DNA of 32,945 nucleotides from a bacterium (GTDB taxonomy: Bacteria; CLD3; SB21). Under the pieces are notes generated by a model, which saw only the letters and a program-made list of their open reading frames with translations, had not been told where the DNA came from and searched no databases. Location: NCBI GenBank assembly GCA_013360215.1, contig JABWCP010000032.1, positions 1-32,945 of the forward strand. Reading direction: 5' to 3'. Each line of letters starts with the position of its first letter. Position 1 is the stretch's first letter. A program made the position numbers and the translations under genes. Positions 6,076 through 22,800 of the stretch are shown one piece after another.

Positions 6076-8313
6076 TCACTTAGCCCAATGATTCCACTGT
6101 AGTGTCAAATATGCATTTCTTCCGCGTCCCGGCATTTTTTGAATGTTGGCATGTTCACGGTAATCGGTATCCAAAACATTTTCTACACCCCATTGCAATT
6201 CCGCGTGTTTATTCACTTTTATACCGCCTCGGATTGTAAATAAGGTAAAACCGTGCGTGCGATGTTCAACCGCCTGTTGTTTGGCAAAACGGTTTTGTGA
6301 AGCGGCCGTTTTATTAGACAATTCAAACCAATACGAACCCGGCACCCAACGCACACTGTTTAAAACTTCAAGCGGCGCCATACCGGGCATCGGTTCATCC
6401 CATGCACTTACGCGGCTGTAACGGTATGAGGCTGTAATCTGCCATGCGATGGTATTGGTAATACTTCGAAAATGCGACGCTTCGATACCGGCAAGATCCG
6501 CGTGATGGACGTTTTCAATTTGTTTGAACAGCGTATCGGTGGTAATACCTGCGATATAGCGATCAATCCGTGTGTAAAAAATCTGCGCTTTGGAAATATG
6601 CTTATCCGTTTTGTATTCGTACGACAGTTCCGATTGATAACTGATCTCGGGTTTGAGATTGGGATTGCCTGTATAAATAAATCCATCGGACACATTATAA
6701 AAATAAAAACCATAGTTCTCGATATGCGTCGGCGTACGCGCCGTCCGTGCGAGCGCTAATCGCAATTTTTGATCGGCCATCATTTGCCATTCCGCAGCCG
6801 CACTGGCGCTAAAAGTTATGTATGATGTATTGAGGTGCGTCCGGTTCCAATATCCTTCCAACTCCCGGCGACCGATATCATCATGCAGGGAACGAACGGA
6901 ATAATCCAAACGGAATGATGATTTGAAAACAATTTTTTCCGTTAACAAACGACGGTATTCGGCGGCGGCGGCGTAGTTATAAACATGCGTTGACCCGATA
7001 TTGACGAGGTACATCGGCGAAACCTCGGGATCCAAACTTTGCATATCCATATCGGCAAACGCCGTCATACGATAAAAATCCACAACCCATTTGATGCCTT
7101 GAATATTGTCGCCGGTATAGAGATTGCTCGAAAAACCGATCGTACGCGTATTGCCGTACATCGGCATATACATATTCGGCATAAAATCACGTGCCGTGAC
7201 ATCTCTGTCGTAGTCATCCATATCATGATCCACCATGTTAAAATACACTTTGGTATTCAAAAACGATGCATGATGCCAAGGTTGTCTCCACTGGTGTTCA
7301 AGACCAAAAATATTGGCCACTGCGCGGCGGGTATCCATCAGCAAAACGGGATAACCGGCATCGGTTGCAACATCGCGAATATACGATGCCGTCCAGGTAT
7401 GATTACCGTTTTGGTGCGCAATATCCGTTTTAACGTTGGATTTATTATATCCTGAATTATGCATCAAACGGCCGTCACCGGCACGGAAATCATCGGACTT
7501 GCGAAGCGAAACGCCCGCGCGTGCGGCCCATGCACCGCCGGACCAATTGGTGGTCGAGCGCACAAAACGCAAATGAGATACGTTTTCATATCCGGTTTGT
7601 ACGCCGATGGCAAAGGGTACGGAAAAATCGGGTTTGCCCGTTCTGAGATTGAGTGATCCACCGATCGTCTGCCCGGCGCTCATATCGAAACCGCCTTTAG
7701 CAACTTCGATTTTTTCGAGATTATCTATTTCGACGTACGACGTGACGGGATCCATTTTGTCAATGCACGCGCCAAAAATTTTCATATCATCCACAAGCAC
7801 CTGAATTTGGCCGCCGCTTAGCCCCCGGATGGCCGGTTCTAATCCGAAATTGCCGCGACGAATCAGGGAAAGGCCGTCTGTTTTTTCAAGAATGTCGTCC
7901 GTGGTGTTGAGTTTCTTTTCAAGATAATACGATTCCTGCTGTTGCTCGATCCACGGGGCTGAAACAATGACTTCTTCTTCAAAACGAATCGCATTGCTGC
8001 GAAGAAAAACAGGCATGATTCTTTTTTCGCTAAAATGGTCCACGCTCACCCATGCGGTTTGGTACCCGACGCACGAAATGCGCAGTTTGTATTTGCCGTG
8101 ATGACGCGGAAGATGAAAGTAACCGGCGCTGTCGGCTATCGTACCTTCTTCCGTGCTGTCCATCCGTATATGCGCATAACGCACGGCTTCGCGGGTTTCT
8201 TCATCCACGATACGACCATGCACCATCGTAGCGTGTTCCTGAGCTTGTACGGATAGGGTTACCAAAACAACTAACCCTGTACAGTATTTGATGATCATTA
8301 ACATAGGTTTCAT
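6076..8313 (-). CDS. TonB-dependent receptor, OprC/NosA-like copper transporter with an N-terminal carboxypeptidase-regulatory-like domain
   Basis: Signal peptide; plug motifs (IRGLSGGQIQVLVD, IEVAKG); barrel motifs (GNPNLKPE, GVENVLD, PGRGRN); CxxxM (GACIDKMDP), HxM (VDHDMDDY) and a Met-rich loop (FMPNMYMPM). Confidence 0.8.
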   Translation of the reverse strand: MKPMLMIIKYCTGLVVLVTLSVQAQEHATMVHGRIVDEETREAVRYAHIRMDSTEEGTIADSAGYFHLPRHHGKYKLRISCVGYQTAWVSVDHFSEKRIMPVFLRSNAIRFEEEVIVSAPWIEQQQESYYLEKKLNTTDDILEKTDGLSLIRRGNFGLEPAIRGLSGGQIQVLVDDMKIFGACIDKMDPVTSYVEIDNLEKIEVAKGGFDMSAGQTIGGSLNLRTGKPDFSVPFAIGVQTGYENVSHLRFVRSTTNWSGGAWAARAGVSLRKSDDFRAGDGRLMHNSGYNKSNVKTDIAHQNGNHTWTASYIRDVATDAGYPVLLMDTRRAVANIFGLEHQWRQPWHHASFLNTKVYFNMVDHDMDDYDRDVTARDFMPNMYMPMYGNTRTIGFSSNLYTGDNIQGIKWVVDFYRMTAFADMDMQSLDPEVSPMYLVNIGSTHVYNYAAAAEYRRLLTEKIVFKSSFRLDYSVRSLHDDIGRRELEGYWNRTHLNTSYITFSASAAAEWQMMADQKLRLALARTARTPTHIENYGFYFYNVSDGFIYTGNPNLKPEISYQSELSYEYKTDKHISKAQIFYTRIDRYIAGITTDTLFKQIENVHHADLAGIEASHFRSITNTIAWQITASYRYSRVSAWDEPMPGMAPLEVLNSVRWVPGSYWFELSNKTAASQNRFAKQQAVEHRTHGFTLFTIRGGIKVNKHAELQWGVENVLDTDYREHANIQKMPGRGRNAYLTLQWNHWAK

Positions 8314-8354
8314 ATTTACACTCAATGAATTAGCGAAACTTTTTACTTTCAAAT

Positions 8355-8401: not shown

Positions 8402-9193
8402 CTAATCAACGGTAACATCAAAATGCGTTTCCACAACGGTTGCCGCATTGCGGGTAATGCTGACATCCACTTGCCAATCGCCGGTCATCGTAAAATTGAC
8501 TTTTCCGCGATATACGGCGCCGCTAACATACACCGGATCTACGTTATTAGGCGATCCGTGTCCCATAGACGGCATCGTCGGTTCGATCGCAAGAGTCGCA
8601 TCGGTCACATCGGGAAATGACATCATGGATACGCGCTCATGCACCATCAGCTCCAATGTGTTCAAACCGACTTCCGGTACACGCGGTTTTTTCCATGAAA
8701 GAATGTACGACTTCGCATCCGTTCCCGTTACGACTTTACAACGATTGGAAGATTTGACCTTGGGTTCGATCATCACCGAACCTTCTTTACCGCTGTGGTG
8801 ATCGTGAAATTCCACTTCCAATTCCCAATACTCCATGTCATTGCCCGGCATTTGAAATACGACATACCCTTCAAATAATCCTTCTTCCGCTTCTTCACTT
8901 TCCGGATTACCGTACGGTGCGGCATGTGTCATTTCCGTCATATGCATCACCGGTGACAAGTGAATATGCCCTTCGTCAAGTATTTCTCCGCTCGCCGAAT
9001 CCTGCAAACGCGTATAGATCGCGTTATATCCGGTAGTCAACGTATCTTCGGAATACACCGAAACCAAAACACCTTGATCGTATCCTTGACCTATCAAAAC
9101 CATATCGTTGACGGGATCGGACGAATTTTTGTCTTTTTCACAAGACGAAATAAAAACAACCGTCATGATGATAATTGCTAACCAACGTAACAT
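8402..9193 (-). CDS. YtkA/FixH-like lipoprotein, Met/His-rich (putative copper-binding)
   Basis: Lipobox VFISSC; two related domains carrying PVMHMTEMTHAAP and PTMPSMGHGSP, plus FTMTGDWQV, typical of YtkA-like domains. Confidence 0.7.
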   Translation of the reverse strand: MLRWLAIIIMTVVFISSCEKDKNSSDPVNDMVLIGQGYDQGVLVSVYSEDTLTTGYNAIYTRLQDSASGEILDEGHIHLSPVMHMTEMTHAAPYGNPESEEAEEGLFEGYVVFQMPGNDMEYWELEVEFHDHHSGKEGSVMIEPKVKSSNRCKVVTGTDAKSYILSWKKPRVPEVGLNTLELMVHERVSMMSFPDVTDATLAIEPTMPSMGHGSPNNVDPVYVSGAVYRGKVNFTMTGDWQVDVSITRNAATVVETHFDVTVD

Positions 9194-9445
9194 GATAAAC
9201 GCTCCCAATTTTTTTTTGATATACTTCGCACACGCGTCGCTCCAAACTTCTTTTTTTGAAGCTTAACTGCAGGGCGCATAAAATTTGACCTGTCATCGTG
9301 ACGATACACCACACTCCGGTACGTAACTGACGGTCGTACTCAGAGCATTGTCATTGTATCTGTTCGATGATCCCATTGAACTAACCGGATGTCTCACATC
9401 ATTGCAAAGCACGATGCACCGAGCATCCGTTGTTTGGAAAAGAGT

Positions 9446-9817
9446 TTAGGCACGCGGCGGGTGAAAAATATCGGAAGGCGTTTTTGAAATGAAAATCGGT
9501 TGCGTGAAAGAGGAAAGTATCGTCGTATAATGAAATTCGGCTATAATTATAGCCGGTCGGATATGAACCGCAATTAATGATTCGCGTTGCATTTCGCCGT
9601 TACCTTTGGTGCCGCAGCCTTCATTGCGTATCGAGCAGGCGTCCGCATCCGCTTGTGTGACATTTTTATGATCGCAGGTACATGCTTTGCCTTGCGACAA
9701 ACAGCAACACGTTTTGACGCTGCTTTCGCTAATAGCACGAAAAGCCTGCGGCAACCCTGCTGAAAATAGCGTTACGACTAAAAGAAATGCCGGTATTTTG
9801 ATTTTTAAAATACGCAT
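9446..9817 (-). CDS. Small Cys-rich protein with signal sequence and C-terminal FHPPRA; candidate DUF2946/CruR/CutF-like regulatory ORF
   Basis: 123 aa; ATG lies 1 nt after the upstream stop (TGA-T-ATG); hydrophobic N-terminus; 7 Cys (CCC, CTC, C, C); ends PSDIFHPPRA. Confidence 0.65.
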   Translation of the reverse strand: MRILKIKIPAFLLVVTLFSAGLPQAFRAISESSVKTCCCLSQGKACTCDHKNVTQADADACSIRNEGCGTKGNGEMQRESLIAVHIRPAIIIAEFHYTTILSSFTQPIFISKTPSDIFHPPRA

Positions 9818-9818
9818 A

Positions 9819-10328
9819 TCACCACGGGTTTCCACGAACTATCATGACGGCCAAAAAAACAATAATCAGACTGATTAGCAGATTTACGCGGCCGATCCAA
9901 GACGCCGCTTTGCGCAGTCCGGGTACCGACGGATGATCCGGGGTATCGCGCCACATACGGGTGGCTTTGGGTCCAAGCCAAAAATCATGCAAACCGCCAA
10001 GCACTAATAGCAGCATAAACAGCGTGATTTTAATTCCCAGTGTGTGCCCGAAATGGCTGTCATAAAATTCGGATTTAAAAAAATCACCCCAGGAATACCC
10101 TCGGGCAAATACATTATATAAACCGGTAGTGAGCAGCAAACCAAATACGATCCAGCCCCAAAAACGAAAACGTTCTCCGGCCCATAATACGATTTTCGGT
10201 GCCACATTTTTATAATCCGGATTGCGGAGAAGCGGAACAAACACAATCACAAAAAAAATCAAACCGCCCACCCAAATCATGGCACAAAGAATATGCAGAA
10301 ATACGGATATAAAATAACCGGTCAACAT
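9819..10328 (-). CDS. CopD/DUF4149-like membrane protein
   Basis: 169 aa, four TM helices, LH..CA..WVGG and LHDF..GP motifs; begins 3 nt after the nosY stop. Confidence 0.7.
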   Translation of the reverse strand: MLTGYFISVFLHILCAMIWVGGLIFFVIVFVPLLRNPDYKNVAPKIVLWAGERFRFWGWIVFGLLLTTGLYNVFARGYSWGDFFKSEFYDSHFGHTLGIKITLFMLLLVLGGLHDFWLGPKATRMWRDTPDHPSVPGLRKAASWIGRVNLLISLIIVFLAVMIVRGNPW

Positions 10329-10331
10329 GAT

Positions 10332-11123
10332 TTAGAAATCCTTTTTTAAAAAGTGTCGCTTGGCAACAAATAACGGTATCACAGCCCATCCTACCAAGGC
10401 CGCCAAAGATACAATAACACCGAGAGAACCGCCAAAGAATTTTTTAAACGCAGCCCCTGTATAACCCATCATCGCGGCAACATCCATTTTCATCAGTATC
10501 ATCGAGCGCGCAATATTGATGGGATTGAGCATACTGATGCCGATCAGCGGTTTTTCCAACGGATAGTCGGCGAAGGCATACACGATGTATAACACCATGC
10601 CATCAAAAAGTAACGCCAGAGCGAACCACAGGCCTAGAGCAAAACCGATGCCTTTGAGTTTGTCATCTGTGCGCATTGCAATACCAAAAGCCAGCGCGCT
10701 AAAAATCAGCGTTAGCAATAAACCTGTCCCCAGCAACATTACAGGGATTCGCCAATCCGGTATCGAGTTATAACCGAACATCAGTATCGGAACACCTGCG
10801 CCGACGACAAACCCTCCTGCCAGCGGCAGCGCCATTCCGAGATACACGCCCCAAAATAGTTTGCTGCGACGTATCGGTTGGCACAGAAGAATTTCAATAA
10901 ATTCGCGCGAGTGATATACATGCATGGCGCCGAATATCATACTTACCAGCGGTACGATAAGAAGCAAAATCTGCGTCATCGTCAGAAATACGCGACTTGC
11001 ATCCCCTTGCAATTGAAACAACCCGAAGGTCAGCACAAAGAAAAAAGCCGTGTACAAAATGATCCATTTATTACGGATCTGATCGTACCATTCGAATTTT
11101 AGTATTTTTTGGAGAGCGTCCAC
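10332..11123 (-). CDS. nosY: Nos ABC transporter permease NosY
   Basis: Six or more TM segments, SREFIEILLCQPIRR, LNPINIAR, A.MGYTGA motifs; overlaps nosF; GTG start. Confidence 0.9.
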   Translation of the reverse strand: MDALQKILKFEWYDQIRNKWIILYTAFFFVLTFGLFQLQGDASRVFLTMTQILLLIVPLVSMIFGAMHVYHSREFIEILLCQPIRRSKLFWGVYLGMALPLAGGFVVGAGVPILMFGYNSIPDWRIPVMLLGTGLLLTLIFSALAFGIAMRTDDKLKGIGFALGLWFALALLFDGMVLYIVYAFADYPLEKPLIGISMLNPINIARSMILMKMDVAAMMGYTGAAFKKFFGGSLGVIVSLAALVGWAVIPLFVAKRHFLKKDF

Positions 11124-11833
11124 AGTCCAAGTCCTTTCATCAAATGTGCGATGGATCGTTCGAGCCGTTCTTCGCCGGTCTTTTGACGCAGATCTTCGAT
11201 CGTACCTTCAAAATTGACGCACCCTTCATTTAAAAACAAAACACGATCGGTGATTTCTTCCAATTCACTCATCACATGCGACGTAATGATCACCGTGCGA
11301 CCGTTATTTTTTTCTTTGAGAATTTTATCCTTGAGTAACGTACTCGATACGGGATCAAGCCCGGCGGTGGGTTCATCCAATATCAGTACATCCGGCCGAA
11401 AAAGAAAAGCGAGGTACGCATTCACTTTTTGTTTGGTTCCGCCGGAGAGGTGTTTGAGTGCTTTACTGATTTCCCTTTCGAGCTGCAGTGAACGCATCAA
11501 CTCTTCATCGCGATCCGTAACCATATCGCGAAGATCGGCCATAAGCGATAATAGTTCGTGCACTTTCATGTTTTCGGGAAACCGCGCGGTCTGTGGCATA
11601 TATCCGATACGCCGACGGTATTCGGCATCCTGTGGTGCTATCGCTTTGCCGTCCAGCGTGATCAAACCGCTGTCGGGTGTTACCAAACCGAGTATGGATT
11701 TGATAAGCGTGGATTTGCCGGAACCGTTAGGTCCGATGATGGCTGTGACTTTTCCGGTATCAAACGAAGCGTTGACGCGATTGAGCACGCGCTGTTCGCC
11801 AAAATTTTTGATTAGTGATTGGATTGTTATCAT
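11099..11833 (-). CDS. nosF: Nos ABC transporter ATPase NosF
   Basis: Walker A GPNGSGKS, signature LSGG, Walker B LILDEP, H-loop TSH; ATGA overlap with the nosD stop. Confidence 0.92.
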   Translation of the reverse strand: MITIQSLIKNFGEQRVLNRVNASFDTGKVTAIIGPNGSGKSTLIKSILGLVTPDSGLITLDGKAIAPQDAEYRRRIGYMPQTARFPENMKVHELLSLMADLRDMVTDRDEELMRSLQLEREISKALKHLSGGTKQKVNAYLAFLFRPDVLILDEPTAGLDPVSSTLLKDKILKEKNNGRTVIITSHVMSELEEITDRVLFLNEGCVNFEGTIEDLRQKTGEERLERSIAHLMKGLGLWTLSKKY

Positions 11834-13065
11834 AAGCACCGCCCCATTTTGGGTTTGTCGTCCATGAGCGCCGCCGGTGTAAGCGACGGAATAATGCGCT
11901 CGACCAGATCGAGGGCGACGATCGTGAGGCTGCGCATGAGGATCATCGCTTCCGTATGCTGTTCGGAAATCACGGAAAAAAGACTTACGGGGCGATACGG
12001 CTCATCACCGACTCCGTCGCGATCCAGATCATAACCGCTGTAATTGGACCAATAGTTCATCGAAAACGTATTGCGGTTACTGCGCGAATTGGTCGCTACG
12101 TCAAACGCATTATTCTCAAAATCGTTTTCCGTAAAAAAATTATCTGTACAGTTTCCTAAAAGCCGCAACGCCCAGCCGTTGTGTACAAAACGGTTCCTCC
12201 GCATCGTCATACGATTGGACCCTTCCATGTGCACGCCGGCGGTATTGTTCTCGAACACATTATCACGAATATCACTGTCGGTAATATCTTTGAGCAATAT
12301 CCCATACGATGCCGGACCCCAGTTACGGCGAAATGTATTACCGTACATCGCAATATACCGTGTGTACATCACGGCCACACCGGCCGAGTTTTCTTCAAAT
12401 GTATTACCCGTGTATGTACAACTGTCAGAAAACATGAAATGCAGCCCGTAGCGCAGATTACCTAAACTGTGATTATTGCGAATGATGCTGGATTTGACAA
12501 ATTCGAAATAAATACCGTCACGATGTCCGTTGATAGCATTATTTTCGATCGTGATCGCGCGGCAATACCAGAGATGAATGCCGTTACCGGACGAGGATTC
12601 TGTTTTGCCGTCGCTGGATATAAAATTATTTCGCACCAAGCAAAAACTGCTTTTGGCGAGATAGATCGCAAAAAAATTCTTTTCAAACCGATTATCTTCG
12701 ATCGTCACAAAACGTGCGTCGTTGACTTTGACGGCGGCATTTTCCTGCGTGTAACTTATACCTGCACGGACAAATACAAATCCGCGTACAGTCACATACG
12801 ACGCTTCGATGCGCCAGATTTCCGATGTAGCGAGACCGTCCATCACGGGCCAATCCACGCCGATCAGTACGACTTGTTTTTGGATCCAAAGCGGTCCCTC
12901 GGCATAACGTCCTTTGTGAACAAAGATCGTGTCTGTATTTTTCGCCGCTTCCAATGCCGATCGCACGGACGAATACGAAAATCCTTCTCCGACGTGCAAG
13001 GCTTTGGCAAAAACCGTCGTACCCAGCATCACGGCCAACAAACTATGTATGATCCATTTTCGCAT
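11830..13065 (-). CDS. nosD: Nitrous oxide reductase maturation protein NosD
   Basis: Signal peptide, beta-helix repeats, GNGIHLW, RDGIYFEF, RYGLHFMFS, GVAVMY, NYWSNYSGYDLDRDGVGD.PY. ATG 13065 lies 1 nt after the upstream stop. Confidence 0.95.
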   Translation of the reverse strand: MRKWIIHSLLAVMLGTTVFAKALHVGEGFSYSSVRSALEAAKNTDTIFVHKGRYAEGPLWIQKQVVLIGVDWPVMDGLATSEIWRIEASYVTVRGFVFVRAGISYTQENAAVKVNDARFVTIEDNRFEKNFFAIYLAKSSFCLVRNNFISSDGKTESSSGNGIHLWYCRAITIENNAINGHRDGIYFEFVKSSIIRNNHSLGNLRYGLHFMFSDSCTYTGNTFEENSAGVAVMYTRYIAMYGNTFRRNWGPASYGILLKDITDSDIRDNVFENNTAGVHMEGSNRMTMRRNRFVHNGWALRLLGNCTDNFFTENDFENNAFDVATNSRSNRNTFSMNYWSNYSGYDLDRDGVGDEPYRPVSLFSVISEQHTEAMILMRSLTIVALDLVERIIPSLTPAALMDDKPKMGRCL

Positions 13066-13066
13066 A

Positions 13067-14443
13067 TCAGAGTTTTTCAAAATGCGCCGTAAAATGACGC
13101 AAAAATTTCGGTTCGTAGGTGATTTTATAGCCGCGCACTTTTTCTTTATTCTTTACGATTTCATCGAAAACTTCGATCACATAATCCACGTGGCTTTGCG
13201 TATATACACGTCGCGGAATCGCAAGGCGTACGAGTTCCATCGGCGAAGGAATCAATTTTCCGGACGCTTCGTATTTGCCAAACATCACTGAGCCCACTTC
13301 CACGCAACGAATACCGCCGACTTTGTAAAGTTCGCAAACAAGCGCTTGCCCGGGGTATTGATCCACGGGAATATGCGGATACAGGTCTTTGGCATTGATA
13401 TACACCGCATGACCGCCGACGGGTAGCATGATCGGTACGCCGAGCGCGTTGATTTTTTCACCGAGATACTGCGTGCTGCGAATGCGATACTTGAGATAAT
13501 CTGCGTCAAAAACTTCCTGCAAACCCACGGCCATAGCGTCCATATCACGACCGGCTAGTCCGCCGTATGTGGTAAAACCTTCGGTAATGATCAAAAGATT
13601 GGTACAAGCTGCGGCGATCGCATCGTCACGCAATGCCAGAAATCCGCCGATATTGACAAGCCCATCTTTTTTGGCGCTCATCACACAACCATCGGCAAGA
13701 TCAAACATGGCCTGCGCAATTTCTTTATATGAAAGATGCGCACACTCCGCTTCGCCATGTTTGATAAAGTATGCATTTTCTGCGACGCGGCAGGCATCTA
13801 TGATAAACAAAATTTTGTACTTCGCGCAGAGTTCACTCAAAGCACGGGCATTGGCAAGGCTCACGGGTTGGCCGCCGCCGGTATTATTGGTAACGGTCAG
13901 GATAACGGCAGCGATATTTTCAGCGTTGTATTTTTTAATCCAATACTCGACCTGTACCAAATCAATATTACCTTTGAAAGGGTGTGGCTTACCGGGCTCC
14001 AGCGCCTCGGGGATGGGGCAATCGATCGCCGTGGCGCCGGAAAATTCGATATTGGCCCGGGTTGTGTCAAAGTGCGTATTACTCAAAAAAACTTTACCTT
14101 TGCCGCCCAGATGGCCGTACAGAATGCGTTCGGCTGCGCGCCCCTGATGCGTCGGCAGAATGTGAGGATATCCGGTAAGGTCTTTGACGACGGACTCCAG
14201 ACGTTCCCAACTTTGTGCGCCGGCATAGGATTCGTCACCGCTGATCATAGCGGCCCATTGTTTATGACTCATAGCCGACGTACCGCTGTCCGTCAAAAAA
14301 TCAATCAGCACATGCTCGGATTTGAGCAAAAAAGGATTGTAGTGCGCTTGATGCAAAAGTTGTTGACGTTCCTCTTCGCTCGTCATATAAATGGGTTCAA
14401 CCATTTTGATACGAAAAGGTTCAATAATAACATTGTGTTTCAT
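13067..14443 (-). CDS. tnaA: Tryptophanase (tryptophan indole-lyase; PLP beta-eliminating lyase)
   Basis: 458 aa; EPFRIKMVE, IDFLTDSGT, GDESYAG, THQGRAAE, PLP lysine motif MSAKKDG, RLAIPRRVYT. FDTT and LRHFTA match tryptophanase rather than tyrosine phenol-lyase (FTTT, LRFFTA). Confidence 0.88.
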   Translation of the reverse strand: MKHNVIIEPFRIKMVEPIYMTSEEERQQLLHQAHYNPFLLKSEHVLIDFLTDSGTSAMSHKQWAAMISGDESYAGAQSWERLESVVKDLTGYPHILPTHQGRAAERILYGHLGGKGKVFLSNTHFDTTRANIEFSGATAIDCPIPEALEPGKPHPFKGNIDLVQVEYWIKKYNAENIAAVILTVTNNTGGGQPVSLANARALSELCAKYKILFIIDACRVAENAYFIKHGEAECAHLSYKEIAQAMFDLADGCVMSAKKDGLVNIGGFLALRDDAIAAACTNLLIITEGFTTYGGLAGRDMDAMAVGLQEVFDADYLKYRIRSTQYLGEKINALGVPIMLPVGGHAVYINAKDLYPHIPVDQYPGQALVCELYKVGGIRCVEVGSVMFGKYEASGKLIPSPMELVRLAIPRRVYTQSHVDYVIEVFDEIVKNKEKVRGYKITYEPKFLRHFTAHFEKL

Positions 14444-14526
14444 TGTCGTTTTCCTGATAGTTTTTCGGTTACAATGGACACAATATAAATTTTCATGCTT
14501 CTTTTTTTTCTGACAAAAGTCATATT

Positions 14527-14985
14527 TTAAAAACGATTTTCTTTTTCTATGTAAGCTTTGAGTTGTTCCCAACTCATAATGTCGCCGCTGTTTTCTTTCT
14601 GTGCATTTTCGACGGCTATATTCCCGTTATAAGCGGAGAGAAACAAACCCATCGGGCTGGGTCTTTTTTCGCTGCGCAGATAGCGCGCATCTTTGGCCGG
14701 AATAAACGTTTCGGGCTGATCAAAGGTCGTCACCCAGATCGTACCTTGATCGTTGGCTGATTTTTGTTGATGATAATACTTCACCAAACATTCGATGGAA
14801 TCAAATTTGTAAATTTTTCCTTTTTCGGTTACCCACTCGCTGCCAAAACGGCGATCCGTAATGCCCATACGGCAATGGGCGCACTCGTCTTGTCCATAGG
14901 CGATGGGTTCGGGCCCGGACGTACAAGACCATACCAGTAATGATAACAGGCTAAGCAGCGCCGGGAATCGGTTTGACCGCAACAT
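14527..14985 (-). CDS. nosL: Copper chaperone lipoprotein NosL
   Basis: GGAGG RBS before ATG 14985; lipobox LVWSC; CAHCRM, FDSIECL and SPMG motifs. Confidence 0.92.
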   Translation of the reverse strand: MLRSNRFPALLSLLSLLVWSCTSGPEPIAYGQDECAHCRMGITDRRFGSEWVTEKGKIYKFDSIECLVKYYHQQKSANDQGTIWVTTFDQPETFIPAKDARYLRSEKRPSPMGLFLSAYNGNIAVENAQKENSGDIMSWEQLKAYIEKENRF

Positions 14986-15577
14986 GGTTTTTTTCCTCCG
15001 TGATGGACGTGTTTTTACGTGATACGAAAAGAACATACAACGTGATCAAAAATGATAATCCTGCCAGAATGCCTCCGATACTCGGTAGCGATGTCGTATG
15101 CATATTCAGAAGCTGTTTGCTTCCGATAAGCGGCGGTTGATAGCTCATACCGGGAATTTTGATCGCCGCATGCGGGTTGAGATTATGACCGTAGTCGTAT
15201 TCCCACAAATAAAAATCCACCAAACCTGCGATCAAAATCGCCAAAAATAAAAACGCCCATACGCCAAGGATTTTTCGTTTTCCAATCCACGCCGCTAAAA
15301 GCCCCGTTAGAATCAAAAAACCTACAAAATAGGGCATGATTTTAAGTTCGGGTATGGATTCGGGCGTAATTTCTTTCATGCCGATATAGTGATTGAGACC
15401 ATTGATAGTTCTGAGGTCGTGCTGATTTTCGCCGCTGATTTTATTGACCCAAATATAGAGACCGAGCCCTTCGGGATATTGCGGCGCATCAAGCGTGATT
15501 TTCCAAAGCGGCGTAAAATATATACCGGTCAGTATAAGCGAAGCCACCGCAATCAGTATTTTTTGTCGTTTATTCAT
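14951..15577 (-). CDS. nosB: Clade II nos membrane protein NosB
   Basis: PLWKITLDAPQYPEGL, INGLNHYIGM, DFYLWEYDYGHNL.P.A.IK.PGM.YQPPLIG.KQLLN; four TM helices; directly downstream of nosZ. Confidence 0.88.
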   Translation of the reverse strand: MNKRQKILIAVASLILTGIYFTPLWKITLDAPQYPEGLGLYIWVNKISGENQHDLRTINGLNHYIGMKEITPESIPELKIMPYFVGFLILTGLLAAWIGKRKILGVWAFLFLAILIAGLVDFYLWEYDYGHNLNPHAAIKIPGMSYQPPLIGSKQLLNMHTTSLPSIGGILAGLSFLITLYVLFVSRKNTSITEEKNHVAVKPIPGAA

Positions 15578-15589
15578 AACACACCTTAC

Positions 15590-15624
15590 AAAGAAAATAA
15601 AGGGGAGGTTTTTTGAGCCTCCCC
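15590..15624 (-). terminator. Intrinsic terminator/attenuator between nosZ and nosB
   Basis: Minus strand GGGGAGG-ctcaaaaaa-CCTCCCC followed by TTTATTTTCTTT, 12 nt after the nosZ stop. Confidence 0.75.
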
Positions 15625-15636
15625 CAAAATTCAAAC

Positions 15637-17601
15637 TTATTTACCTGTGCTAAATGTCAGCGCGGTATTGGAACCGGCAGCCGAAACGCGAACGTAACCT
15701 TGCATTTCCTGATGCAATGCGGAGCAGAAATCCGTGCAATACATCGGATAAACGCCGGGTGTCTTCGGTTCCCAACGTACGGTAGCGGTTTCACCGGGCA
15801 TGATCAGAAGTTCCGCATTGTTATTGCCTTTGATGGCAAATCCGTGCGGCACATCCCAATCTTGTTCGAGATTGGTTACATGGAAATAAACCACATCACC
15901 GACCTTGACGCCTTCGATATTGTCCGGCGCAAAGTGAGAGCGCGAAGCGGTCATATACACATGCACTTCTTTGCCTTCACGAACGACTTTGGCATCTTTT
16001 TCGCTCTTGGTCGCATACTTATGTTCGTTTTTATTGATGTCAAAAATTTTGACTTCATGTTTGCGAACGAGATCCGCCGCAATACCTTGAGCATAGTGCG
16101 GTTCGCCTATCGTCGGGAAATCCGACAACATGCGCATTTTGTCGCCGCTTATATCGATCAACTGAGCGGATTGCGTGAGCTCCGGACCCGTCGGAAGATA
16201 ACGGTCTTTGGTGATTTTATTCATCGCCAATACATATTTGCCCCACGGTTGTTTACTGTCGCCGCCGGGGATCATGAGGTGACCGATCGAATAGTAGGTC
16301 GGCATGCGGTCAACGACTTCCCACGTACCGAGTTTCCATTTGACAACTTCCGATGATACGAAGTGGGACGTATACGCATAACCTTTACCGTCAAATTCGG
16401 TATGGAGCGGTCCGAGGCCCGGTTCTTGTACTTCACCGGCCAATACGGCATCGTATTTGAGAACAGGAATACCATCGCGATCGCCGTCAAACGCTTTGCC
16501 TTCGATGGCTTTGATCATCTTGCTGAAAGAAAATACGGGAATAACTGTAGCCAGCTTTCCGCCACCGACGATGTATTCGCCGGACGGATCCACGTCAGCG
16601 CCATGCGGAGATTTCGGGCAAGGCATCAGATACAACATATCGGGACAATCTTTGGGATCCAGCATCATCACTTGTTTTTTCTTTTCGGAAATCGTGGTGT
16701 GCTTATTGTCATCATAACGGTTGATATAATATTCCGAAGCCCAAGGTTTCGCTTTGCCCTGTTTGATATATTCTTCGGCTTTCTTCCAGTTTACCGCCAT
16801 GATGAAATCTTTATCATTCTGGCTGGCATTGACTTCAAGCAACGTATGCGCTTGTTCCGTATTGTACGTGGAGAAGAAGAACCATCCATGAGACGGACCT
16901 TTACCGGCATGGCTCAGATCATAGTTGAAACCCGGCACCAGTATCTGGAACGCGAGATCCATGTGGCCTTCTTTAGGATCAACTTTGACAAATGAAATCG
17001 CGCCTTTGAAATTTTGTTTGTACGAATTGATCGCTACGTCGGCTTGCGGTGTCGGCACGCTAAAACGTGTCGCCGATACGACGTACTCCGTATTGATCGT
17101 CGTGAACGGCGAAGCGTGGCTGCCGCCGCTATTGGGAATTTCGATGATTTCTTCGGTACGGAATGTACCCAAATCAATACGCGCGATACGCGGCGAATTA
17201 TTGGCATTGATAAAAAGCCAACGTCCGTCCGGAGTACCGTCGGTCATGGATAATTCAGGATGGTGGCTGTCGTCCCAGGGAATGAAGCCGTCCGTCGTCT
17301 GAAGCATACCTTTGGTTTCTTCATTGAAGCCCCAGCCGTTTTCAGGGTTTACGGCAAAAACAGGGATCGTTTTGAAAAGGCGACCGCTTGGCAGACCATA
17401 GACAGACACCTGACCACTAAAGCCGCCGGAGAGAAATGCATAGAACTCATCATAACTTCCGGGTGGAACAAACACTTTGGATGCGGCATCACCGCTACCG
17501 ATCGTTGCCTCTTTTTTTGCAGGGCACCCGATCCAGACCGCGGCTAATGCGAGCACAACCAACGACGCATAAACTATGCGTGCGGATGGTTTTCGGAACA
17601 T
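15637..17601 (-). CDS. nosZ: Nitrous oxide reductase, clade II (Sec-type, probable lipoprotein)
   Basis: GAGGAG RBS before ATG 17601; no twin-Arg motif, signal ends VWIGC. All seven CuZ His contexts (DSHH, GSHASP, PHG, GPLH, GHL, EPH) and the CuA ligands (PHGF...CTDFCSALHQEM) are present. Confidence 0.97.
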   Translation of the reverse strand: MFRKPSARIVYASLVVLALAAVWIGCPAKKEATIGSGDAASKVFVPPGSYDEFYAFLSGGFSGQVSVYGLPSGRLFKTIPVFAVNPENGWGFNEETKGMLQTTDGFIPWDDSHHPELSMTDGTPDGRWLFINANNSPRIARIDLGTFRTEEIIEIPNSGGSHASPFTTINTEYVVSATRFSVPTPQADVAINSYKQNFKGAISFVKVDPKEGHMDLAFQILVPGFNYDLSHAGKGPSHGWFFFSTYNTEQAHTLLEVNASQNDKDFIMAVNWKKAEEYIKQGKAKPWASEYYINRYDDNKHTTISEKKKQVMMLDPKDCPDMLYLMPCPKSPHGADVDPSGEYIVGGGKLATVIPVFSFSKMIKAIEGKAFDGDRDGIPVLKYDAVLAGEVQEPGLGPLHTEFDGKGYAYTSHFVSSEVVKWKLGTWEVVDRMPTYYSIGHLMIPGGDSKQPWGKYVLAMNKITKDRYLPTGPELTQSAQLIDISGDKMRMLSDFPTIGEPHYAQGIAADLVRKHEVKIFDINKNEHKYATKSEKDAKVVREGKEVHVYMTASRSHFAPDNIEGVKVGDVVYFHVTNLEQDWDVPHGFAIKGNNNAELLIMPGETATVRWEPKTPGVYPMYCTDFCSALHQEMQGYVRVSAAGSNTALTFSTGK

Positions 17602-17670
17602 AAGAGCCTCCTCGATCACTCAGATCGTTTTTTTGTTTTATGTAAACGATGGTATAAGCCATCGAAATCA

Positions 17671-18174
17671 TCACGAAGGTTTTTTCGCGTTTTCATTAGC
17701 ATGGCGCAGATACTCTAAGATGGCACGGCATTCGTCCATCGTGAGATTCTGATTGGCCATCGGAATCAAAAATTGTGCGAATAATTTTTTGGCATCCGGA
17801 TGATTCTTGATCATACCTTCCGGATTGAGCATCATATTCATCACGTATTCCGGTTTTCGGATTTTGAGTACATCCTGGAGCGGCGGGCCGACCAGTTTGG
17901 TATCCAAACGATGGCAGGCGTAGCACTTGGTTTCAAAGGCTTTTTCGCCCTTTTTGACCAGTGTCGTATTGATGGCTTCCAATTTCAGTTCCTCTTTGAC
18001 CGGGCCGATACCGTGTTCTTTTTCAAATGCCGTCAATCCGGCATACGGGTCCGGTTTGGCAGGTTTATTGGCGGCTTCTCCCCAAGAAGCTTTGGCTTCT
18101 TCATTGGATGAACCGCAAGCTGTCATAGATATGGCGGCCGCGAAAATGGCGAGCGCTAACACATAGGATTTCAT
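17671..18174 (-). CDS. Monoheme class I cytochrome c lipoprotein associated with nosZ
   Basis: Lipobox MTAC; CYACH heme motif; VGPPL; distal Met in IPMANQ. Confidence 0.9.
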   Translation of the reverse strand: MKSYVLALAIFAAAISMTACGSSNEEAKASWGEAANKPAKPDPYAGLTAFEKEHGIGPVKEELKLEAINTTLVKKGEKAFETKCYACHRLDTKLVGPPLQDVLKIRKPEYVMNMMLNPEGMIKNHPDAKKLFAQFLIPMANQNLTMDECRAILEYLRHANENAKKPS

Positions 18175-18199: not shown

Positions 18200-18946
18200 T
18201 TAATTGTGTGTGGTTTTGTCGAAAATTTGTTTTTCCATCATGACGGCCTTGGGAAACAAAACATTGTTTTCGAGGTGCACATGTTTATGAAGGTCTTGTT
18301 CAAACTCTTGCAACTCATGCAGAAGCAGACGGTAGGTCGTACAAGCATCCACAGGAACATGGTAATCGGCCGTCAACGTGCGGATTTTTTCCATCTGCTG
18401 TCCCGCAAACGCATGTTCATGTTCCATGACATGGATCGGATTGAGCACGGTGCCAAACCCATTGGGACGGATCGGCGCGTGATGCGTGATGTAATTTTCC
18501 AATTCGCAGACGTAGGGAAAAAGAATCACTTCTTCTTTTTGCAAATGCAATTTGAGCTCGGATGATAGCGCTTCAAACGCTTCACGAACGGTTACCATTT
18601 CCGGATGGTGATCGCCATGAACCTGTGCCACTTTATTAAGGTGACGTTCGATCAGTGGAATCGCGTGGCGCATGTAGGTATGATGATTGCTTTGAATATA
18701 TTCGACTATAAATCCCGCTGGTTGTTCATGGATCGGCTTAGGTTGTTGACCTTGAGAGGGTGATTGAATAGCTTTTTCGATATCACGGCATACATCCGCC
18801 AGCGCGATATCTTTATCACGGCAAGCGTCGGATAAAATTTTTTTCCCGCCACAACAAAAATCCAAACGATAGTGTTCGAGAATTTCGGCTGAACGAGGGT
18901 ATTCCAATACGATTTGACCAAGAGGCATGTCTTCAAATGATTTCAT
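18200..18946 (-). CDS. ric: Iron-sulfur cluster repair di-iron protein (RIC/YtfE/ScdA)
   Basis: N-terminal LDFCCGG; hemerythrin-like HH, HLQKEEVILFP, MEHEH and HKHVHLENNVLFP motifs. Confidence 0.93.
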   Translation of the reverse strand: MKSFEDMPLGQIVLEYPRSAEILEHYRLDFCCGGKKILSDACRDKDIALADVCRDIEKAIQSPSQGQQPKPIHEQPAGFIVEYIQSNHHTYMRHAIPLIERHLNKVAQVHGDHHPEMVTVREAFEALSSELKLHLQKEEVILFPYVCELENYITHHAPIRPNGFGTVLNPIHVMEHEHAFAGQQMEKIRTLTADYHVPVDACTTYRLLLHELQEFEQDLHKHVHLENNVLFPKAVMMEKQIFDKTTHN

Positions 18947-19009: not shown

Positions 19010-19474
19010 TCACTTCGGTTGTTTTTTTTCTTCCTCATATCCTTCGTCGGCGATTCGGAAATTGAACGTATTGATTTTATCCGCCAGTGTATTGAGTGTA
19101 GCATTTTCAAACATCGCATTTATCTTCTCACGGTGTTTGGCCCATTCACTATGCAAGGGGCAAGGCGCAAGATTGCCACAGCCGGGCAATCCAAAAATAC
19201 ATTGATCAAAAATATTAGGACCGTCTATGGCTTCGACAATATCCGTAAGTGAAATATCTTTGGGGTCGCGCGCCAAGGCCACTCCGCCTTTGGGTCCGCG
19301 GTAGGATATCATGATATTATTTTCCGTTAGCTGCTGTAAAATCTTGGTCAAGAAGTGAAATGATATATTGAGGTTTTCAGAAATCTGCTGAATCGGCACA
19401 TATTCTTTATGACCAAGAGACGCCACATACATCGCGGCACGAATTCCGTATAAACAACTTTTAGTTAGTAGCAT
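19010..19474 (-). CDS. Rrf2-family transcriptional regulator (NsrR/IscR-like, probable Fe-S binding)
   Basis: Winged HTH (FLTKILQQL...SYRGPKGG..LA...ISL.DIV.AIDG) and C-x6-C-x5-CPLH (CIFGLPGCGNLAPCPLH). Confidence 0.92.
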   Translation of the reverse strand: MLLTKSCLYGIRAAMYVASLGHKEYVPIQQISENLNISFHFLTKILQQLTENNIMISYRGPKGGVALARDPKDISLTDIVEAIDGPNIFDQCIFGLPGCGNLAPCPLHSEWAKHREKINAMFENATLNTLADKINTFNFRIADEGYEEEKKQPK

Positions 19475-19685: not shown

Positions 19686-19701
19686 TGTGAGCTAAATCAC
19701 A
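19686..19701. promoter_or_regulatory. Crp/Fnr-family (CRP-type) binding site
   Basis: TGTGA-gctaaa-TCACA, an exact TGTGA-N6-TCACA match in the divergent intergenic region. Confidence 0.55.
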
Positions 19702-19822: not shown

Positions 19823-22800
19823 ATGAAAACCTTGCTCACGATGATCGCTTTGATTTTTTTTGCAAGCGATATGTATTCACAAACTGCGCTTACCGGCGGT
19901 ATTACACAGTCCGGTAATTTTACGGCCGCCGGCCAAACAGCCACCTACTCCTACAACCAATCGGTTAGTTACTGGAGTGTGGTGGGTATCCGGCCGCCAT
20001 CAACATCCGACTTTGACATCGAACTTAGCGCCAACACCAATTTCAGTCCTATACTCGCCAGTAGTACACTGGGTACCGGCAAAGTAGATTTCATCGTAGC
20101 CGATTATAACCATTCACCTACGGGTGCACAATACGTTCGCCTCAAAGACTATAGCGGCGCAGGTACGTACTACGTCGAATATGAGAGCGGCGCACATACA
20201 TTAGGTGTTCCATCCAATAGCGGTACACTATCCTGGACATCCAACGAAATCGTCAAAGTTTGGGACGTGTATCTGCAGGCCGGTGTGACTTATACATTTA
20301 AGCTCCGCACACTTTCCGGTCTTCAGGATTATGGCATATCGCTTTACAAATCCAATGCTGCCGCCTATTATGCAGGCCGCAGTTCGGCTGCCGCCACATC
20401 CGATATTGCCGCCAGCGGTACGGACGAATACTTTTCCTATACACCGAGCGTTACGGATTATTACGGCTTCGTCGTATGGTCCAATGATAATTACGGCACA
20501 AGCGGAACCTACGACATTACGGTATCAACATTGGCCACCAATAACCCGCTATCCAGCGCGGCTTCGCCGGGTCAATTTTCATATTATCAAACAAATACCA
20601 ATTGGTCCGTTGTCGCCTTACGCTCAGGTAGCGGCGCCAATGACAATCTCTCGCTTTATACCAATTCGTCCTATACGACTTTAGCTGCGCAAAGCGCATT
20701 AGCCTCGGGTGTCGAAATTATTGCCACTGAAAATGATACCATCACACAAGGTTACTTCCGTTATCCTAAGGTGGATCGCACCGGAGGCACTTCACAATAT
20801 ACTTTGGAGTGGGACGAATCCAGCGGATATATCGGTTTGGGAAGTTATACGACGACGTCATGGAACGCTAACACGGTCGCTAAAGTGTATAACCTGTCCA
20901 TGGCGCAAGGTGCTAAATACCGCATTAAATTGCATACCGTTTCAGGTAGTGTGGATGCAGGCCTTCTTCTTTTCAAACCCAATGGTTCACTGAGTTCCCA
21001 AGCGCGATCGGCCGCACTGCAATCGGCCGATGCCAATGGCGCCGGACTGAACGAAGAGATCATACTCACCGCGCCGGTTTCCGGATGGTATGCATTGGTC
21101 GTTTACAGCAATACGGCTACCGCCGGTTCTTTTGATTTGTCGTTCAATCAGGAAATTCTCGCCGCTTCCAACGTGTACGGGCAAGGCATCAAACATTATG
21201 CCTTCGATCAACAAAATGCCGCATGGTCCGTAGTCGGCGTGCGCCCGCCATCCAACGCGAATACCGATATCGTTTTGTATAATAATCATACGTACACCAC
21301 GCCTTTAGCGACCAGCAATACAGCCGGCACAGGCCAGGTGGATTTTGTCGTCGGCGATCAGCATCACACGGCCAAAGGCATTTACTACGTCAGCACGGAC
21401 GATCCCTTGAATCCGAGTCGCGTAAATTATACCACGCAATGGGAAGGCGGTAATGAATCGTTAACGGCGCCCGGAACAAATACCGGCTACGCCTGGGCCA
21501 AAACGGATGTCGTAAAAATATGGGATGTACAATTGGTGTCCGGAATCAATTATACATTTAATCTGAGCGTAAGCGGCGGTACACCCAATCTCGGCATGGC
21601 GATATTCCGCTCTTCGTCTACTACGGAATCATTTTATTTTGGCCGCTCCGGAGCGGCCGCGATCGCCGATGTGAACGGGAACGGGGGAGGCGAATCGTTT
21701 TCCTATACACCGAGCGGCGCATTAGGCACACTCGATCATTACGGTATTGTCGTTTGGAGCAATGATACCACATCCGCCGGAAGCGTCCGCATTGACATCG
21801 CCCAACCGCTTATGACCAGTGCGACACCCGTTTCCGCCAGCAGTTCTCCCGGGCTTTACGCGTTCAATCAATCCGTCTCCGGATGGGGCGTCATCGCATT
21901 ACGGCCGCAGTCTTTCGAAGATTTTGATTTAGAATTGCACGGCGCTTCCGATTACAACAATCTTTTGGCTCAAAGCACGTTGGGAACAGGCGCTGTAGAG
22001 TTTATCGCGGGCGATTTTCGTGCCGGACACGCCCCGCTTAAAACCTATTTCACAAAAGCCGTACAAAACAGCGGCAAAGGCCCTTATGCGATCGAATGGG
22101 AAGGCACCAACGAAACCCTACCCGTCGAAGGTAATTCCGGTACGATCAGCTGGGGTACCACGGCTATCGCTAAAGTATACAATGTGCCCCTGGTCGGCGG
22201 ACGCACTTACAAAATCAAATTGGATTTTCTGACCAATGCCTTCGATGCCGGAATGGCGTTATTCCAACCGTCAACAGGTAATAATTATTTTCCACGCGGT
22301 TCGCAGGCCATGCTCGCCGATGTAGCCGGCGCAGGCAATGAATCTATGACATTTACGGCGCCCATGACGGATACCTACGGCCTTGTGGTTTGGGGCAACA
22401 CACAACCGGCTTCGGCCGCCACGTTTGCCATAGACATCAATCAGCCGCCCGTAGTGAGCGTACCGATTCCCGACGTAAATTTTTCAGAAGATCAAGGCAG
22501 CGGACTTGTGGCCAATTCTAACCTCAACGGAAATTTTTCCGATATACAACCTTTAAGCTATTCGGCATCCGTACTCAAAGGCGGCGGTATCACGGTCAGC
22601 GTGGCGGGCAGTACACTCAAAGTCAGCACGGTTTCTGATTCCGTCGGCCAATATCCCGTCGTCGTGACGGCCAATGACGGAACTTTTTTTACCAGTGATA
22701 CACTCATTGTTACTTTGGCGCCGGTGAATGATCTTCCATACCGCTCCGCGCTGATACCAGATCCTAAAATCGCCGAAGATGAACAGTCTTTTTTTGCATC

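Follow-up and report, generated by a model that had tools for sequence, protein, structure and literature searches.

Why would a bacterium keep the gene for an amino-acid-cleaving enzyme inside the operon that matures its nitrous-oxide (N2O) reductase? The question is raised by contig JABWCP010000032.1, whose entire 32,945 bp form the window analysed here and whose minus strand carries a long same-strand string of genes running from an Rrf2-family regulator gene through the nos genes. Within this string an open reading frame (ORF) of 458 amino acids, the tryptophanase gene tnaA (product P0001; 13067-14443, minus strand; ATG 14443-14441, stop TGA 13069-13067), stands between nosL and nosD. The junction with nosD reads TGA-T-ATG (nosD ATG 13065-13063), leaving a gap of 1 nt, and an A-rich stretch of 83 nt (14444-14526) separates the end of nosL from the tnaA start. 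All the parts of a clade II nos cluster are present: a Sec-dependent NosZ, NosL, NosD and the ABC pair. An earlier description made from the letters alone, the sequence-only reading, had placed a full-length tnaA between nosL and nosD with its stop 1 nt before the nosD ATG, and had proposed that the enzyme was recruited to supply sulfide for the copper-sulfide centre CuZ of NosZ. The placement is borne out by the ORF, by matches to PF01212 and PRK13238 and by the catalytic lysine pair, and the junction by the sequence itself. We find that the gene of a predicted cytoplasmic tryptophan indole-lyase has become a fixed companion of nosDFY within a clade II nos operon; it has done so in a single family, an uncultured sludge lineage of the Fibrobacteres–Chlorobi–Bacteroidetes (FCB) group; as to its role, we tentatively favour oxygen-independent tryptophan catabolism wired to N2O respiration, which we rate a little below an even chance.

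The arrangement is present in independent data and in other genomes. Logan DNA contigs from a separate study (run X8) bridge both tnaA junctions, record 25 covering 10266-13682 and record 27 covering 14138-16332, and the stretch was found, whole or in part, in 20 rows from 11 studies of activated-sludge runs. We compared 20 species genomes of the phylum as defined in GTDB, 15 of them from the family of the window and 5 from outside it. NosZ and NosD are encoded in 15/15 family genomes and in 0/5 of the others; tnaA is found in 19 of the 20, including all five that have neither NosZ nor NosD. It lies between nosZ/nosL and nosD in 10/15 family genomes (the window genome G000, G008, G009, G012 and G014-G019), in nine of them immediately 5′ of nosD, and after nosY and a CopD-like gene in two more (G006, G007), this second position being that of genus g2. 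In G011 the gene is placed elsewhere, in G013 it falls on contig ends, and in G010 (91% complete) it was not found; these three genomes have nosL followed directly by nosD. At the junctions seen in relatives, tnaA and its neighbour overlap by 4 nt or lie 6 nt apart, and the frame stays intact and the junctions tight across copies that are 67-78% identical. Hence the intact tnaA between nosL and nosD is neither a one-off nor an assembly error, and the insertion is not restricted to this genome, the finding that the sequence-only reading had said would count against it. The interval between nosL and nosD is itself variable in the family, holding none, one or several of CtaA/COX15-like, fasciclin-domain, YwiC-like and unnamed genes; this variable slot is seen at L003 7453-9962, L089 4655-9526, L092 6044-6673 and L093 6448-8377.

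The identity of the enzyme was examined at the level of family and of active site. PF01212 (Beta_elim_lyase) matches residues 48-423 of P0001 (E 6e-73), and the NCBIfam tryptophanase subfamily PRK13238 spans residues 5-457 with 680.7 bits (cut-off 285). P0001 scores under the TnaA equivalog cut-offs (523.3/825.8 bits for TIGR02617 and 534/750 bits for NF053783) and also under that of tyrosine phenol-lyase (TPL; 514.5/720.7 bits), and it sits in a separate clade of the tryptophanase subfamily. Its lysine pair KK 258-259, which binds pyridoxal 5′-phosphate (PLP), corresponds in the alignment to the KK seen in solved chains of TnaA and TPL, and its overall similarity to solved tryptophanases equals that to phenol-lyases (E ~1e-137 each). 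According to the accessible part of a mutagenesis study (PMC5805759), five active-site positions split the two enzymes, being D137, F304, V394, I396 and H463 in indole-lyase and T124, M288, M379, R381 and F448 in phenol-lyase. P0001 has D126, F290, V381, V383 and H450 there, four identical to indole-lyase and one a conservative I-to-V change that is common to 26/78 rows of its clade (DFVVH in 23, DYVVH in 3). Among the 102 aligned rows the first position is Asp in 78/78 rows of this clade, and the 24 paralogue rows read T-L-M-R. Because the five residues fit the indole-lyase set while the paralogues carry the phenol-lyase pattern, P0001 is predicted to be of the tryptophan type, with an indole pocket that appears to have been kept by selection. 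These paralogues come from the 80 closest related loci, taken from species genomes: a phenol-lyase type gene (T-L-M-R-F) is found in the flanking sequence fetched around tnaA in 24/80 of them, often directly adjoining it, in Bacteroidota, Ignavibacteriota, Acidobacteriota and other phyla (L027, L034, L037, L055, L058 and L060 among others). The window holds no such paralogue, and tnaA is a single copy in its genome.

No control element of the classical tryptophanase type accompanies the gene, as the sequence-only reading had also held. The sole ORF in the gap between nosL and tnaA (14523-14440, minus strand, 27 codons, its stop overlapping the tnaA start as ATGA) contains no Trp codon, so that there is no tnaC-type leader between the two genes, and PF03222, the Trp/Tyr permease family of TnaB and Mtr, has no match anywhere in the window genome, whose completeness by marker genes is 100%. 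The minus strand of the 83-nt gap has no terminator-like hairpin. It has one sigma-70-like match of 9 of 12 positions (14516-14489), from a scan that yielded 15 sites in total against 20.8 in shuffled sequence and that left FCB-type promoters outside its reach. Contigs from RNA libraries of two studies cross each junction: X13 record 12 (12128-13826) spans tnaA-nosD, and X17 record 21 (14270-18134; a strain 95-99% identical) spans the nosL-tnaA gap. Such libraries may hold DNA and contigs cannot show one transcript; these bridges are compatible with co-transcription of nosL, tnaA and nosD, short of proof. Contig depth in X12 and X13 is 116-145 over scdA-nosL and 5-13 over tnaA-nosD, a quantity that cannot rank genes, and no contig of these two runs is listed across the nosL-tnaA gap, a hole in contig coverage that proves nothing.

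A TGTGA-N6-TCACA palindrome was also considered as a control element. It occurs 12 times in the window genome, where the reversed control pattern occurs once, and 10/12 copies are intergenic; it probably serves a Crp/Fnr-type regulator as operator. The copies lie in the window at 19686-19701 and on contigs C3, C9, C10, C14, C28, C39, C40, C49 and C50, upstream of the Rrf2-nos string (or of the divergent giant gene), of msrA and msrB, of a cluster with genes for cystathionine beta-synthase (CBS) type and Cys/Met PLP enzymes, and of alcohol dehydrogenase and isocitrate dehydrogenase genes. We dropped it as a control of tnaA, as the window has a single copy, none is near tnaA, and the genomic sites do not form a clear anaerobic regulon.

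The company of tnaA was then surveyed beyond nosL and nosD. NosZ is encoded within the fetched flanks in 8/80 related loci: three have the arrangement of the window (L003, L005, L006), one has tnaA directly 3′ of nosY (L067), two have it beside scdA upstream of the nos genes (L011, L051), and in two it lies 3-4 kb from nos genes (L043, L076). The commonest specific neighbours of tnaA in the 80 loci are scdA (15), genes of an Rrf2 regulator (10) and a Crp/Fnr regulator (10), and nosZ (8), scdA being at most 440 bp away in L011, L027, L034, L051, L064, L072, L075 and L077. Within the phylum sample, tnaA follows cbb3 oxidase genes (ccoNO, ccoP, ccoG, fixH), a Crp-like regulator gene and a radical-SAM gene in G011, lies near nrfH-nrfA and ccoNO in G005, adjoins a glycyl-radical enzyme gene in G003 and is 3′ of a gene for a cyclic-nucleotide-binding protein in G004. 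COX1-like neighbours were considered as nitric oxide (NO) reductases; for G005 and G011 this was rejected, as theirs are COX1+FixO fusions of cbb3 oxidase, and an unassigned 454-aa COX1-like cluster was noted in 5 loci. The shared theme of this company is respiration at low oxygen or with N-oxides, and stress, not the assembly of copper centres as such.

Two further results bear on how often tnaA and nos have come together. A tree of 87 TnaA-type rows was rooted with 6 phenol-lyases; its backbone is poorly resolved, and 4 of the 81 first-set rows (L042, L049, L052, L071) were left out for lack of an ORF of at least 400 aa. On this tree the seven tnaA copies that lie between nosL and nosD form one group, with a Shimodaira–Hasegawa-like approximate likelihood-ratio (SH-aLRT) support of 87, and the nos-linked state takes 7 changes, fewer being forced by the starred branches. 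The TnaA of Wenzhouxiangella (Gammaproteobacteria), of Pyrinomonadaceae (Acidobacteriota) and of Gemmatimonas nest among Bacteroidota sequences, and this nesting of phyla points to frequent horizontal transfer of the tnaA clade. In 401 Bacteroidota genomes, drawn evenly and independently of likeness to the window TnaA, a TnaA/TPL homologue is found in 134, NosZ in 134 and both in 67 (odds ratio 3.0, which is uncorrected for kinship and hence overstated). The two genes are at most 10 kb apart in 3/67 genomes (G020, G100, G223) against ~0.34 expected, and ~12-14 kb apart in two more (G127, G283); the other half of the NosZ-bearing genomes (67/134) have no TnaA/TPL homologue, and in most clusters of genomes with both genes the two are unlinked. 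Linkage of tnaA with nos is thus recurrent and above chance, but rare.

What the host can do with tryptophan was assessed from the genome. Neither NirK above cut-off nor NirS was found in it, and the organism therefore looks like a non-denitrifying N2O reducer. None of trpB, trpA, indole-glycerol-phosphate synthase and trpD reaches its family cut-off, controls having matched in all 14 named genomes, and the tryptophan pathway appears to be absent. A tryptophan 2,3-dioxygenase gene is present (E 1e-115; G000:C49:59042-60037, L103 7019-8116); it is a solitary gene, after which come an RnfC/Nuo51-like gene and a gene for a bacterial microcompartment (BMC) domain shell protein. The dioxygenase is encoded in 14/15 nos-bearing family genomes and in 0/5 of the nos-less others. 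A search for PF01077, the domain of siroheme sulfite/nitrite reductases, had no match in any of the 20 phylum genomes, and for this reason the lineage probably depends on organic sulfur.

From these results the reading we favour can be set out as follows. The bacterium would make no tryptophan and would live on imported amino acids and peptides. Under oxic conditions tryptophan 2,3-dioxygenase would open the indole ring; during anoxic N2O respiration this route would be shut, and TnaA, transcribed with nosDFY, would cleave tryptophan without O2 to pyruvate, ammonia and indole. Pyruvate would serve as carbon source and as electron donor. Because tnaA would be co-transcribed with nosDFY, the nos promoter, instead of a tryptophan-sensing tnaC leader, would control it. 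The direct basis consists of the gene identity, the specificity residues, the gene order, the tight junctions, the bridging contigs, the absence of trpA-D and the presence of the dioxygenase; we infer the direction of flux, the part played by oxygen and the co-regulation. This is the best-supported of the readings, in that it accounts at once for the retention of the indole pocket, for the lack of tnaC and tnaB, for the occurrence of tnaA in relatives that have no nos genes, for the phenol-lyase twin of other lineages, and for the cbb3, nrf, Crp/Fnr, scdA and nos company. The paralogue found in 24/80 loci is counted in its favour as it is likewise an O2-free source of pyruvate. From its family, the enzyme would be expected also to release some sulfide from cysteine as a side reaction. 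Amino-acid catabolism during N2O respiration had been listed in the sequence-only reading as an alternative, and it suits the evidence better than the sulfide role preferred there.

Several points weigh against tryptophan catabolism as the answer. The activity of the enzyme and its regulation are both read from sequence, and the pattern of dioxygenase, nos and tnaA may go back to one event in the history of a single family. Moreover, the reading gives no account of why tryptophan, alone among the amino acids, should be tied to the maturation genes of the operon, in translational coupling with nosD, and that an organism unable to make tryptophan should destroy it would be surprising without an ample supply of peptides. 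The setting among copper-handling proteins (NosL, NosD, a CopD-like protein and a TonB-dependent receptor) and the 0/20 count of sulfite reductase would suit a sulfide role as well. Finally, the bridging contigs come from RNA libraries that may contain DNA and have no power to show a single transcript.

The sulfide role survives best among the rivals, and we consider it rather unlikely. It holds that TnaA acts mainly as an L-cysteine desulfhydrase whose H2S crosses the membrane and becomes the sulfide of CuZ during assembly by NosL and NosDFY; in relatives whose tnaA adjoins scdA, the gene of RIC (repair of iron centres), the sulfide would serve to mend Fe-S clusters damaged by NO. The position of tnaA speaks for it: the gene lies exactly between that of the copper chaperone NosL and nosD, is coupled to nosD and is kept there in two-thirds of the family, independent nos linkages have arisen elsewhere, as the 7 changes on the tree and the excess of close pairs in Bacteroidota indicate, and scdA adjoins tnaA in eight loci. 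With no siroheme sulfite reductase in the phylum sample, free sulfide would therefore have to come from organic sulfur. In the accessible sections of a 2026 review (PMC13685413) the sulfur donor of CuZ and its delivery are still described as unresolved, as the sequence-only reading had stated, and no sulfur transport is seen in the cryo-electron microscopy maps of NosDFY. The enzymology points both ways, as the portion of a study of E. coli that was available (PMC6401616) reports that added cysteine is degraded mainly by TnaA, but also that the Km of this enzyme for cysteine is 11 mM and that its loss left H2S production in lysogeny broth (LB) unchanged. The nos-embedded clade, however, has kept its indole-pocket residues, and its enzyme is predicted to be cytoplasmic by homology of the N-terminus to soluble enzymes, whereas CuZ is assembled in the periplasm. 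A dedicated CuZ factor would occur wherever NosZ does and be absent otherwise, whereas tnaA is retained by 5/5 nos-less relatives, lies outside the nos cluster or is missing in 3/15 nos-bearing family genomes (G010, G011, G013), and has no homologue, or is unlinked, in most NosZ-bearing Bacteroidota. The window genome also encodes, along with six class-V aminotransferases (cysteine desulfurase-like), a CBS-type enzyme and a Cys/Met-metabolism PLP enzyme, the last two being other possible sources of H2S. Thus of the proposal that TnaA was recruited to make sulfide for NosZ, recruitment into the operon is real, conserved and tightly coupled; the sulfide role is shown by no result, and several argue against a dedicated one. 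A wider form of the idea, that in lineages lacking sulfite reduction the tryptophanase, or in relatives its phenol-lyase twin, is an on-demand generator of sulfide from cysteine within N-oxide regulons, feeding both CuZ and RIC-assisted Fe-S repair, seems to us distinctly unlikely; if it were true, it would be the first genetic candidate for the source of CuZ sulfur.

A role in which indole itself is central is quite improbable. TnaA would here work in the synthetic or replacement direction and salvage environmental indole into tryptophan, or indole would be released to act as a signal or to scavenge nitrosating species under N-oxides. In the phylum sample trpB was not found in 18/20 genomes and tnaA is present in 19/20, and no genome lacks both; this complementarity depends on one genome, G010, which is without tnaA and has trpB but no trpA. 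The retained indole-binding residues of P0001 would fit, as would the occurrence of tnaA near scdA and an Rrf2 regulator gene, and in Bacteroidota a TnaA/TPL homologue is more frequent in genomes without trpB (28/53) than in those with it (106/348; odds ratio 2.6, uncorrected for kinship). However, the 106 genomes with both enzymes and the 25 with neither indicate that they are not generally interchangeable, and for Bacteroidota we rejected TnaA as a general stand-in for TrpB. Nothing found here accounts for a tie of indole salvage to nos, and the chemistry of indole with N-oxides and the growth of trp mutants on indole are general background to this reading.

That tnaA is a mobile gene which inserted where the nos operon tolerates extra genes, and which has since been passed on by vertical descent without any functional bearing on N2O reduction, is no more probable than the indole role, since the variable nosL-nosD interval, the mixture of Bacteroidota, Ignavibacteriota, Acidobacteriota, Gemmatimonadota and Wenzhouxiangella on the TnaA tree, which speaks for frequent transfer, and the sufficiency of one insertion for nos-embedded copies that form one tree group are met by the constancy of tnaA as the occupant next to nosD (directly upstream in 9 of 10 genomes), by its second position in genus g2, by the repetition of the linkage in other arrangements by unrelated lineages, and by the frames and junctions preserved among diverged copies.

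To our knowledge, nitrous-oxide reductase is the only known biological sink of N2O. A conserved, coupled tnaA between nosL and nosD bears on the question of how CuZ obtains its sulfur. If the ordinary reading of the gene holds, non-denitrifying N2O reducers of wastewater sludge would couple O2-free breakdown of amino acids to N2O respiration. Moreover, tnaA and tpl recurrently travel with nos, scdA and genes of low-oxygen respiration in FCB-group bacteria, and both of these points concern what feeds N2O consumption in treatment plants. Full-text literature searches, with subscription-only papers outside their scope, yielded no paper that links tryptophanase to nos clusters, and a clade II nos operon in which a tryptophanase gene is conserved as an insert is undescribed in the literature reached.

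The features of the locus are collected in Table 1. The membrane protein gene 3′ of nosZ presumably corresponds to the gene called nosB, a name that no search assigned. The CopD-like gene is found 3′ of nosY in relatives too, and the pair of YtkA-like and TonB-dependent receptor genes also lies downstream of the nos genes in L003, L006 and L089; together with the Cys-rich ORF, these two genes, which come after nosY and the CopD-like gene, may form a module for copper uptake joined to the nos operon. Divergent to the nos string is the gene for a 2751-aa cadherin-like repeat protein with a C-terminal domain of FlgD-Ig type (19823-28078, plus strand).

Table 1. Features of the nos region in the 32,945-bp window, listed from the tail of the string to its head
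Feature	Position	Strand	Basis
TonB-dependent receptor	6076-8352	-	domain search
YtkA-like protein	8402-9208	-	domain search
Small exported Cys-rich ORF, CCC...C.CDH motif	9446-9835	-	without family match
CopD-like membrane protein	9819..10328	-	PF05425 E 1.7e-13
nosY, ABC-2 permease	10332..11123	-	PF12679
nosF, ABC ATPase	11099..11839	-	PF00005
nosD	11830..13065	-	TIGR04247 416.8 bits, cut-off 300
tnaA, tryptophan indole-lyase type beta-eliminating lyase (predicted)	13067..14443	-	PF01212 E 6e-73, PRK13238
Gap nosL/tnaA with 27-codon ORF	14444..14526	-	sequence inspection
nosL	14527..15036	-	PF05573 E 7e-10
Membrane protein gene 3′ of nosZ	14951..15634	-	no Pfam/NCBIfam match; position kept in related loci
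nosZ, Sec-dependent (clade II) nitrous-oxide reductase	15637..17619	-	TIGR04246 953 bits, cut-off 625
c-type cytochrome gene	17671..18174	-	PF00034
scdA/RIC di-iron protein gene	18200..18946	-	ScdA_N + Hemerythrin domains
Rrf2-family regulator gene	19010..19474	-	PF02082 E 1.5e-29; name NsrR by analogy only
Perfect TGTGA-N6-TCACA palindrome	19686..19701	.	212 nt upstream of Rrf2 regulator gene

Comparison with known systems places the enzyme and the operon as follows. As far as the accessible account of the L-cysteine desulfhydrases of E. coli goes (TnaA, MetC, CysK, CysM, MalY and YhaM), enzymes of the TnaA family release H2S from cysteine as a side reaction. Tyrosine phenol-lyase of Citrobacter freundii and Erwinia herbicola (PDB 1TPL, 1C7G) shares with P0001 the family, the overall similarity (E 1.6e-136 to 1C7G) and the products except the aromatic leaving group, but has T, M, M, R and F where P0001 has D, F, V, V and H. 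E. coli TnaA (PDB 2C44, 2OQX) is alike in fold and in the PLP lysine pair; in phmmer P0001 matches 2C44 with E 5e-127, no better than it matches the phenol-lyases, and the residues around the indole ring are DFVIH in E. coli and DFVVH in P0001. In the E. coli tnaCAB operon the gene is preceded by a Trp-containing leader, tnaC, and accompanied by a permease gene, tnaB, neither of which was found here, where tnaA is instead embedded in a nos operon. That operon agrees in gene set and order with standard clade II nos clusters (nosZ, a membrane protein gene, nosL, nosD, nosF and nosY), and differs from them in the inserted tnaA, in the Rrf2, scdA and cytochrome c genes at its head, and in the CopD-like, YtkA-like and TonB-dependent receptor genes at its tail.

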